Under the pieces are notes generated by a model. That model worked only from the letters and a program-made list of their open reading frames with translations, was not told the origin of the DNA and did no database searches. Shown piece by piece: positions 15,313 to 16,174 of a stretch of 64,000 nucleotides of DNA. The stretch is from NCBI GenBank assembly GCA_045862955.1, contig BTVI01000002.1, positions 39,736-103,735 on the forward strand. The letters run 5' to 3'. Numbering within the stretch: the stretch's first letter is position 1; each line of letters starts with the position of its first letter. This stretch comes from Fimbriimonadales bacterium (GTDB lineage: Bacteria > Armatimonadota > Fimbriimonadia > Fimbriimonadales > JABRVX01). Both the position numbers and the translations under genes were made by a program.

Positions 15313-15489
15313 GTCTCGCGACATTCCGGTCTTGGTGCTGCGCATCTGCCCGATTGGCGTCTCAACTGTCTATCCCTCACCCTATCGCTGTGGCGAGGGA
15401 AGAGCGCTTTACTAGCTAACCCTTGCCACGGGCACTAATGGGGGCTTGGTATGAGACCCGCCTAGCGAGTCGCAGTTACTGCGCTCCAT

Positions 15490-15643
15490 CATGCTGAGCC
15501 TGCCGTCATGCGTAGTGCGGGGTCATGCTGAGCTTGTCGTCATGCGTACTGCGTGGACATGCTTGGGCTGCCGTCAGGCGTAGTGCGTGGTCATGCTTAG
15601 CCTTTCGTCATGCTGAGCTTGTCGAAGCATGCGGCCGACTGCC
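15490..15643. repeat. Tandem 17-bp units (alternating A/B types, 34-bp period) ending in a palindromic REP-like core
   Basis: Seven consecutive 17-mers start CATGC at 15490, 15507, 15524, 15541, 15558, 15575 and 15592. They are followed by catgctgagcttgtcgaagcatgcggccgactgcc. Confidence 0.85.
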
Positions 15644-15773
15644 GCGCGAACTCTGTTTGATGTGCCACACCTATACCCGGTCGCCTGGCTCGAAGATCTC
15701 AGCAGGAAGGTGCCGGCTGGTGGTTCTTACGCCTATCCCTCACCACTCGCAGAGGATGGGTCGCTAGCTCCGT

Positions 15774-15859
15774 CATGCTGCGCCAGTCGTCATGCGTAGT
15801 GCGGGGTCATGCGTGGGCTGCCGTCATGCTGAGCTTGCCGAAGCATGCGGCCGACTGCC
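15774..15859. repeat. Second, shorter copy of the 17-bp-unit array plus the same terminal core
   Basis: 17-mers at 15774, 15791 and 15808, then catgctgagcttgccgaagcatgcggccgactgcc. This is near-identical to the end of the 15490-15643 array. Confidence 0.85.
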
Positions 15860-15899
15860 ACCATGGCAGGGTCAGTCGTGTACATGCGACTTGCGATGC

Positions 15900-16152
15900 C
15901 ATGCTTCGACAGGCTCAGCATGACGGCGCTCGGGGGTCCGCTAGGGGATGTGGCCTCATGCTTCGACAGGCTCACCATGACGGTGCTCGGGGGTCCGCTA
16001 GGGGATGCGGCCTCATGCTTCGCCAGGCTCAGCATGACGGCGCTCGGGGGCGCGCCGAGGGATGCGGCCTCGTGCTTCGCCAGGCTCAGCATGACGGCGC
16101 TTGGGGGTCCGCTAGGGGATGCGGCCTCATGCTTCGACAGGCTCAGCATGAC
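15900..16152. repeat. 57-bp tandem array (about 4.5 copies): 25-bp hairpin core plus 32-bp near-identical linker
   Basis: Core catgcttcgacaggctcagcatgac recurs at 15900, 15957, 16014, 16071 and 16128. Linkers (ggcgctcgggggtccgctaggggatgNggcct) are about 90% identical. Confidence 0.9.
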
Positions 16153-16174
16153 GATATTGGCTAGCGACCCCTAC

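Follow-up and report, generated by a model that had tools for sequence, protein, structure and literature searches.

The 862-bp spacer at positions 15313-16174 of a 64,000-nt stretch of DNA from a Fimbriimonadales bacterium (contig BTVI01000002.1; the whole stretch is called the window in the following) is very probably a mosaic cluster built from a repetitive extragenic palindromic (REP)-type palindrome family and locally amplified into tandem arrays, similar to bacterial interspersed mosaic elements (BIMEs) and Neisseria intergenic mosaic elements (NIMEs). The spacer separates two convergent genes, an Ldh/Mdh-family gene (14389-15312, + strand) and a TrpB-like gene (16175-17485, - strand). 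Our analysis showed a REP-class palindrome family that is organised as doublets and was amplified locally within one lineage. The feature is ordinary in kind, though unusually ornate at this site, and is not a locus-specific structure.

The dispersed unit is a palindrome of 27-30 nt, CGTCATGCT-GAGCYTGTCGA-AGCATG, or in its fuller form (C)GTCATGCT-GAGCYTGTCGA-AGCATG(AC), with hairpins of the form CGTCATGCTGAGC... An outer stem of 6-8 bp encloses an invariant inner part that could form tandem G.A/A.G pairs, one G-C pair and a 5-nt loop, while the thermodynamic fold gives the 6-8 bp stem with an 11-nt loop. The 23-mer core, CATGCTGAGCYTGTCGAAGCATG, matched the window 12 times at ≤3 mismatches, compared with 0 matches in 100 shuffles. 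Raising the limit to ≤5 mismatches gave 15 copies, which fall into four loci (15.6-16.15 kb, 26.67 kb, 52.0 kb and 57.25-57.47 kb). An earlier note on this DNA, made without database searches, had placed the repeats correctly; its description is corrected in that the core is not local to the spacer. All sites are intergenic, and convergent genes border three of the four loci. At each locus, a plus-strand copy precedes a minus-strand copy, the pair spanning 104-108 nt with the CGTC ends pointing outward:

15822-15925, both strands: central convergent doublet H2(+)/H3(-) of the spacer, 104 nt; RNA fold -71.1 kcal/mol, z -8.0
26670-26777: second locus, convergent doublet between a GH109-like gene (+) and a CCG/4Fe-4S gene (-); fold -61.5 kcal/mol, z -5.5
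52013-52119: third locus, convergent doublet between an alpha-2-macroglobulin (A2M) gene (+) and a PadR gene (-); fold -65.5 kcal/mol, z -6.3
57252-57473: fourth locus, convergent doublet at 57252-57358 followed by an array up to 57473; fold -71.8 kcal/mol, z -9.7

A lone unit folds weakly (-9.4 kcal/mol, z -0.9), in contrast to the doublets, which reach -61 to -72 kcal/mol (z -5.5 to -9.7) and form stems of ~30 bp as single strands. The strong structure is the doublet and not the single unit that the earlier note described as a hairpin. The doublet spacers are 52-56 nt long; their length is kept, whereas their sequence can barely be aligned among the loci. In the H2/H3 doublet, the 52-nt spacer forms two small hairpins itself.

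Within the 862-bp spacer, the palindrome is accompanied by truncated versions of itself and by a second, unrelated hairpin repeat, arranged as follows:

15370-15399, + strand: copy 1 of the second hairpin repeat (CTATCCCTCACC...GGCGAGGG), sharing a 12-nt exact repeat with 15733
15489-15613, + strand: 34-bp × 3.7 array with a 17-bp sub-period (Tandem Repeats Finder score 166)
15606-15633, + strand: complete element H1, CGTCATGCTGAGCTTGTCGAAGCATGCG, then the tail GGCCGACTGCC up to 15643; the tail occurs again at 15842
15733-15760, + strand: copy 2 of the second hairpin repeat (CTATCCCTCACC...)
15774-15859, + strand: short copy of the 17/34-bp block, ending in the complete element H2 (15822-15849) and the tail GGCCGACTGCC
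15900-16153, - strand: 57-bp × 4.5 array with the elements H3-H7 (Tandem Repeats Finder score 424, 89% matches)
15898-15925, 15955-15982, 16012-16039, 16069-16096 and 16126-16153, - strand: elements H3-H7, each followed by a linker of 30-32 nt

In the 34-bp array, a truncated half of the element that has the left arm and loop but lacks the right arm (GTCATGCTGAGCYTGYC) alternates with a B unit, GTCATGCGTAGTGCGKG. Searching the 64-kb window, we found the B unit only in this array and at 15789. The core together with the tail, AGCATGCGGCCGACTGCC, is present at 15626 and 15842, and the segment 15774-15859 is 85% identical to 15558-15643. All three repeat blocks of the earlier description (alternating 17-bp A/B units, their shorter duplicate and the 57-bp array) were recovered in this way. 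The 57-bp unit is homologous to the unit of a second array at 57333-57473, where the minus-strand copy of the fourth locus continues as a 57-bp × 2.5 array whose linker is homologous too. According to Tandem Repeats Finder, units within the arrays are distinguished by point substitutions.

Two other readings of the arrays were tried and rejected. A coding reading was dropped, as the open reading frames (ORFs) of 129, 119 and 80 amino acids all lack a Pfam match. Because 57 bp equal 19 codons, the array stays open in several reading frames and produces spurious ORFs. A clustered regularly interspaced short palindromic repeats (CRISPR) array was rejected because the 32-nt linkers show the same conservation as the hairpins (89% matches across the full 57-bp unit) and are not unique spacers.

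Comparison with relatives places the arrays in the recent history of this lineage. In loci L200-L202 of a sister Fimbriimonadia (Armatimonadota) lineage, the flanking genes have ~80-84% nucleotide identity and the gene order is kept, but the trpB2/ldh spacer measures only 354 bp and contains, besides one element doublet, a 3× tandem array formed by a different hairpin repeat. That array, of the CTATCCCTCACC... family (L202, 11335-11470), directly follows the trpB2 stop and is homologous to the second hairpin repeat of the window. Another relative, L120, has a 367-bp spacer and no array. More distant TrpB2 loci contain five core copies in 531 kb, compared with 15 in the 64-kb window. Since the sister spacer holds a single doublet, the 34-bp and 57-bp arrays are a recent, lineage-specific tandem amplification. 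By this comparison, the doublet in the trpB2/ldh spacer is older than the split from the sister species, and the locus was enlarged later in the lineage of the window.

A third hairpin-containing repeat (GCCTTCATCCGAGGGCGGAGGGAGGAACGGATGCC...) forms a 61-bp × 3.4 tandem array at 56996-57203, directly upstream of the fourth locus at 57252-57473. The resulting layout at 56996-57473, an array beside a doublet, is that of the sister genome. Immediately downstream of the fourth hairpin cluster lies an ORF of 325 amino acids (57554-58531, + strand) with a faint, sub-threshold match to a Card1-like PD-(D/E)XK endonuclease (E 0.008) and no NCBIfam match.

The family extends far beyond this lineage. 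We scanned one genome per species, 596 Gb in total, for the exact 23-mer and found it in at least 118 stretches, compared with ~0.3 expected by chance. The matches listed span about ten phyla and include Alpha-, Beta- and Deltaproteobacteria, Bacteroidota, Ignavibacteria, Chloroflexota, Eremiobacterota, Binatia, Acidobacteriota, Nitrospinota and Calditrichota. The 23-mer also occurs in unannotated DNA of plasmids from Hymenobacter, Novosphingobium, Comamonas, Moraxella and Nostoc. A literature search with core sequence strings returned an unrelated primer match only.

Across these copies, a 15-nt core, CTGAGCYTGTCGAAG, is invariant, while the outer stem shows compensated variants (CATG/CATG, CATC/GATG, CACC/GGTG and CGTC/GACG). 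We assessed the pairing in 116 foreign copies that were chosen regardless of their stems. Stem positions were paired in 82.3% of cells versus 72.3% in shuffles (slid controls, 35-53%). Double-sided stem changes numbered 140 versus 63 in shuffles, and none of 500 shuffles reached 140.

With a crude gene call, the genomic context of the 118 listed loci was convergent in 34 cases, co-directional in 45 (21 sense, 24 antisense) and divergent in 6. With only 6 of 85 classifiable sites being divergent, the element avoids promoter regions, and the similar numbers of sense and antisense copies speak against a preference for the transcript strand.

Partial-unit tandem arrays of the same hairpin are frequent in other genomes. 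Arrays of 16 nt, (AGCCTGTCGAAGCATG)n, follow a complete hairpin at eight loci (L005, L006, L061, L065, L077, L091, L102 and L106), mostly in Alphaproteobacteria; these are partial-unit slippage products, analogous to the 17-bp half-unit array of the window. Whole units are arrayed as well: a Candidatus Limnocylindria metagenome-assembled genome (MAG; DATJHK010000031.1, Chloroflexota) contains a head-to-tail array of 31 bp × 13, (TGTCATGCTGAGCTTGTCGAAGCATCCGTC)n, at ~3200-3600 of locus L019. At four further loci (L007, L011, L093 and L118, from Hymenobacter, Ignavibacteria and others), complementary flanks that differ from locus to locus make the hairpin longer, and a T-run follows it; the whole resembles an intrinsic terminator formed around the element.

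Among the closest known systems are the CGTC-tagged REPs, a superfamily defined by Di Nocera, De Gregorio & Rocco 2013 that includes Neisseria dRS3 and Rickettsia RPE-4/6 (PMC3733652). Its members have a CGTC, TGTC or CCTC tag, a stem of 8-9 bp starting with AT, a loop of 4-5 nt and a CCA tail (PMC3733652). They mainly form head-to-head dimers with spacers of 20-100 bp that are similar in length and variable in sequence, and they lie downstream of ORFs without an associated transposase or a link to REP-associated tyrosine transposases (RAYTs) (PMC3733652). We compared the window element with these described features. The tag is CGTC in 12 of the 15 window copies (TGTC, AGTC and CGTG once each), and in 155 foreign copies the positions ahead of the A read YSTC, with TGTC and CCTC variants occurring in other genomes. 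As in the superfamily, the stem starts with AT, and a 5-nt loop, CYTGT, is possible (CTTGA/CTTGT in the described families); about 8-9 stem positions together with such a loop result only if the stem is taken to include the two conserved G.A/A.G mismatches. The arrangement agrees as well, with inverted dimers at all four window loci, variable spacers of similar length, a location downstream of ORFs in convergent or co-directional spacers, and occasional large mosaic clusters. The element could, as had been allowed for at the outset, belong to an already described REP family with a known RAYT: it largely does fit one, most of its features agreeing with the CGTC superfamily, whereas the enzyme linked to that superfamily is not a RAYT.

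The local organisation resembles that of BIMEs in E. coli and NIMEs in Neisseria, in which REP-type palindromes alternate with conserved linkers in intergenic positions between gene 3′ ends and the copy number differs among strains or species. One difference lies in orientation: REPs of alternating orientation make up E. coli BIMEs, whereas the arrays here are head-to-tail in a single orientation (57 bp) or consist of truncated half-units (17/34 bp). The original impression that the region is more elaborate than ordinary REP/BIME clusters did not hold as to kind, given comparable arrays in the Limnocylindria MAG and at 57333-57473 of the window itself.

We suggest that the 57-bp × 4.5 array arose when replication slippage or unequal recombination copied the minus-strand unit along with its linker. 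The same processes would have multiplied the truncated left halves (17/34 bp), and the second copy would stem from duplication of a block. Dispersal of the family and its uniformity could be due to an enzyme encoded elsewhere in the genome that acts on single-stranded DNA (ssDNA) and is specific for both hairpin and sequence. At the locus itself, the cluster would act as an incidental barrier of stable stems at the 3′ ends of two converging transcripts, without a sequence-specific RNA function.

Among documented enzymes, the Ssn GIY-YIG nuclease comes closest to such a model, and by analogy with it we tentatively regard spread by a hairpin-specific ssDNA enzyme as possible. Hairpins with a CGTCAT tag are bound in ssDNA form by Ssn nucleases, which cleave immediately upstream of them (Nat Commun 2025, PMC11893778). 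The genes are flanked by CGTCAT-type motifs (NTS or Ssn-related motifs, SRM), and SsnA recognises ssDNA, not RNA, with the C after the stem as the base most critical for binding (PMC11893778). The enzyme that the literature ties to the CGTC superfamily is a GIY-YIG nuclease and not a RAYT (PMC11893778). We found xGTCAY hairpins, often as doublets, flanking Ssn-family genes in plasmid records, IMG/VR loci and NCBI genomes (Hymenobacter, Mucilaginibacter and a Chitinophagaceae MAG), which confirms the published flanking. Like the Ssn motifs, the window element combines a CGTCAT start with a hairpin and has a very wide phylogenetic spread. Doublets with outward tags stand beside ssn genes of Azospirillum, Neisseria, Spirosoma and Hymenobacter, as they do in the window. 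The hairpins flanking ssn genes in Bacteroidota share with the window element the layout GTCAY-NNN-GA...GA-NNN'-RT and a 5-bp outer stem; one of them has the ATGCC/GGCAT stem of window copy 57390. One ssn-flanking copy in L454 also ends in ..CATGACA. In searches with covariance models built only from ssn-flanking hairpins (R1, and R2 with the GA-type only), window copies ranked at the top of the match list.

Several observations weigh against this picture. The matches to both models were non-significant: known copies made up 11 of the 16 best window matches for R1 (E 0.19-5.9) and 5 of the 10 best for R2 (E 0.8-4). Fitted by hand, the element fails the SRM pattern HGTCWYN(0-2)YYVSBRHN(0-5)WNVSBRGN(0-2)RNCYNB (PMC11893778), as GCTGAGC after HGTCWY cannot fit YYVSBRH with any N(0-2). 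The stem is followed by G in all 15 window copies, but by C in 49 of 51 ssn-flanking hairpins, and the GTC, though present, is usually base-paired. This pairing also separates the element from the CGTC superfamily, whose tag is unpaired. Here the tag usually pairs with GAC/GAG after the stem: 8 of 15 window copies end in ..CATGA(C/G/T), which pairs with the tag, and tag columns 7-9 pair with columns 31-33 in most of the 116 foreign copies. Where the superfamily has a CCA tail, the tail here starts with G in every window copy (15 of 15) and in 68% of the foreign ones, and two conserved G.A positions of the stem are non-Watson-Crick. The 2013 list of phyla with CGTC-tagged REPs (PMC3733652) does not include those recorded in this analysis, among them Armatimonadota, Chloroflexota, Eremiobacterota, Acidobacteriota and Nitrospinota. 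From genera with the exact 23-mer, we examined the ssn genes of Hymenobacter, Mucilaginibacter and the Chitinophagaceae MAG; related hairpins flank them, not the exact 23-mer hairpin. Around core copies we searched ~2.6 Mb in all, including ~240 foreign loci, for enzymes. Searches by tblastn and hidden Markov models detected no Ssn-family gene in the window, at the sister loci, at 118 genome loci or at 120 viral-contig loci, with just weak, unrelated matches in L198, L199 and L341, and no RAYT gene turned up there either; a cd10448-type GIY-YIG gene was likewise absent from the 64-kb window, 21 kb of the sister genome and the ~240 foreign core loci. No enzyme family recurs beside the hairpins: clustering the hairpin-adjacent ORFs all against all returned only housekeeping and phage structural proteins as recurrent, and none of the small ORFs bracketed by two hairpins in foreign loci was nuclease-like. 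As the doublet spacers can barely be aligned among loci, the whole doublet is not obviously the copied unit. Finally, we infer the slippage origin of the arrays from their pattern only.

Two further hairpins were noted in the course of the Ssn comparison. In L245 (IMG/VR contig 3300009147_000315), a composite repeat of ~200 bp, present at 1270-1470 and 1790-2000, brackets an ssn-family gene and contains CGTCATGCYGGAAGCATGCCTTCGGCATGACG, which resembles a loopless form of the window element; a further two CTGAGC..GTCGAAG cores are found ~330 nt upstream. A separate CGTC-like hairpin candidate, CGTCAATGCCGGAATTGCCGGCAGTCTGT, was matched by the Ssn-hairpin model at 42455-42483 of the window (- strand) with E 0.38.

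An alternative that we regard as unlikely is that the hairpin with the CTGAGCYTGTCGAAG core represents a distinct, formally undescribed REP class, that its uniformity is kept by its own hairpin-specific ssDNA enzyme and that the arrays are footprints of this enzyme. The class may be marked by the invariant 15-nt centre with tandem G.A pairs, the covarying outer stem, the paired CGTC end and the identical 23-mers in about ten phyla. Its putative enzyme could be a divergent Ssn subclade or belong to another family. If this were true, the 17/34-bp and 57-bp arrays would be footprints of nicking by the enzyme followed by template switching.

A BIME/NIME-like mosaic also has to be weighed against selection mainly for a role in RNA, as a bidirectional terminator or insulator, an mRNA 3′-end stabiliser or a small RNA locus between ldh/mdh and trpB2. 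The placement of the family at gene 3′ ends, its avoidance of divergent spacers with their promoters, the sense-oriented copies that follow each of the converging genes, the high stability of the doublets as RNA, and the extended stem with a T-run at some Bacteroidota loci would all suit such a role. We nevertheless consider it unlikely. Searching Rfam at the gathering score and up to E 10, we obtained nothing relevant in the region, only sub-threshold matches on both strands; the sole match of the window at the gathering score was transfer-messenger RNA (tmRNA). Neither intrinsic terminators or terminator-like sites nor sigma-70 promoters were found in a scan of the spacer. Close relatives lack the arrays in their orthologous spacers, copies in co-directional spacers do not favour the sense strand, and recognition of related hairpins by SsnA-type enzymes is specific to ssDNA, not RNA (PMC11893778). 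The structured RNA locus proposed in the earlier note is therefore not supported, in view of the missing Rfam match, the sister spacers without arrays and the lack of a strand preference across genomes. Hammerhead-like and K-turn readings of the CUGA...CGAAG core were likewise dropped because Rfam gave no match and the element has no strand bias. An RNA-level role could still accompany amplification of the palindrome as a side effect.

Copying of whole doublets by a single-copy Y1 (IS200-like) REP-associated transposase encoded elsewhere, that is, a classical REPIN/RAYT system, appears quite improbable. As REPINs are outlined by Bertels & Rainey 2011 (PMC3116915), the two share inverted palindromes ~100 nt apart that can form one long hairpin, and a locus that persists; the convergent geometry and the presence at the orthologous sister site would agree with this outline and with that in PMC3337134. 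Against it, the element carries a CGTC tag rather than GTAG, its spacers differ among copies and loci, and CGTC REPs have no RAYT association (PMC3733652). GTAG flanks no complete element; it is confined to the interior of the B units in the 34-bp array. A search for a RAYT had been suggested earlier; tblastn with E. coli RayT, which is a weak test, found nothing in 1.47 Mb of sequence.

That the repeats are an assembly artefact, whether collapsed, expanded or chimeric, is very improbable, although every short-read contig that reaches the spacer breaks within the repeats. Seven short-read contigs from independent runs match the window exactly from 15313, five of them to 15635 and the others to 15587 and 15545, and one independent short-read contig reproduces 16125-16174 base for base. 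This exact reproduction shows that the left (34-bp) array is real, which goes against the artefact that the earlier note had named as a refutation. As all contigs stop inside the repeats, the segment 15636-16124 and the number of 57-bp units have no independent support. However, the same unit types recur at three other loci of the window, and point substitutions distinguish the units of the arrays.

The remaining alternative treats the block 15758-16170 as a single non-autonomous transposon, a miniature inverted-repeat transposable element (MITE), bounded by an 11-bp terminal inverted repeat. This repeat is indeed present and perfect, GGGTCGCTAGC (15758-15768) and GCTAGCGACCC (16160-16170), and extends into a composite, interrupted inverted repeat that is paired in the minimum free energy and centroid DNA folds alike:

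15758-15789, + strand: left arm, consisting of the 11-bp GGGTCGCTAGC and the truncated element CGTCATGCTGCGCCAGTCG
16135-16170, + strand: right arm, CGACAGGCTCAGCATGACG ... GCTAGCGACCC

A perfect inverted repeat of at least 11 bp, however, also arises in 13% of dinucleotide shuffles of the region. At ≤1 mismatch, the 11-mer has one further match in the window, with one mismatch, at 49076 inside the A2M gene; it was not found in the sister loci, and no direct repeat flanks the block. The interior consists of the dispersed element and local tandem copies, and the inverted repeat looks like a symmetric leader to two arrays of opposite orientation. A bounded transposon is thus scarcely credible here. 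What stands of the earlier idea of a non-autonomous mobile element is the dispersed REP-class building block, present at four loci of the window and in many phyla, and not a single bounded element.

Taken as a BIME/NIME-like cluster, the repeats explain the breaks that short-read assemblies of this lineage show in this spacer and in similar ones, and the region is a variable-number locus usable for strain typing. An Armatimonadota genome and several other phyla join the carriers of CGTC-type palindromes, with a variant that lies outside the published Ssn-motif definition in its paired tag, the G instead of C after the stem and the conserved G.A pairs. If a cognate nuclease exists, it would widen the known specificity range of hairpin-guided ssDNA nucleases, and the growth of the arrays could be dated between two sister species.

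The two genes flanking the spacer were identified as follows:

14389-15312, + strand: L-lactate/malate dehydrogenase family gene, 307 amino acids (NCBIfam L-LDH 286.8 bits, MDH 279.6 bits)
16175-17485, - strand: TrpB-like pyridoxal phosphate (PLP)-dependent enzyme (TrpB2), 436 amino acids (NF009057, 717.8 bits; cut-off 366)

For the former, both NCBIfam scores fall slightly under the curated cut-offs, and Pfam Ldh_1_N/Ldh_1_C are found in a protein identical to the 307-amino acid product. The gene originally labelled mdh is an Ldh/Mdh-family gene, and trpB2 was confirmed as a TrpB-like PLP enzyme by the NF009057 score. The TrpB-like protein is 98% identical to a homologue named from a Fimbriimonadia (Armatimonadota) MAG. 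Elsewhere in the window, the tmRNA gene lies at 54327-54680 (- strand; Rfam 159.8 bits) and encodes the tag peptide ANSYAYAA. A ResIII helicase of 1125 amino acids and a large upstream ORF are adjacent at 19523-25203 (- strand); by synteny with the sister locus, this pair corresponds to an N6_N4 methyltransferase and ResIII, a type III restriction-modification-like module.

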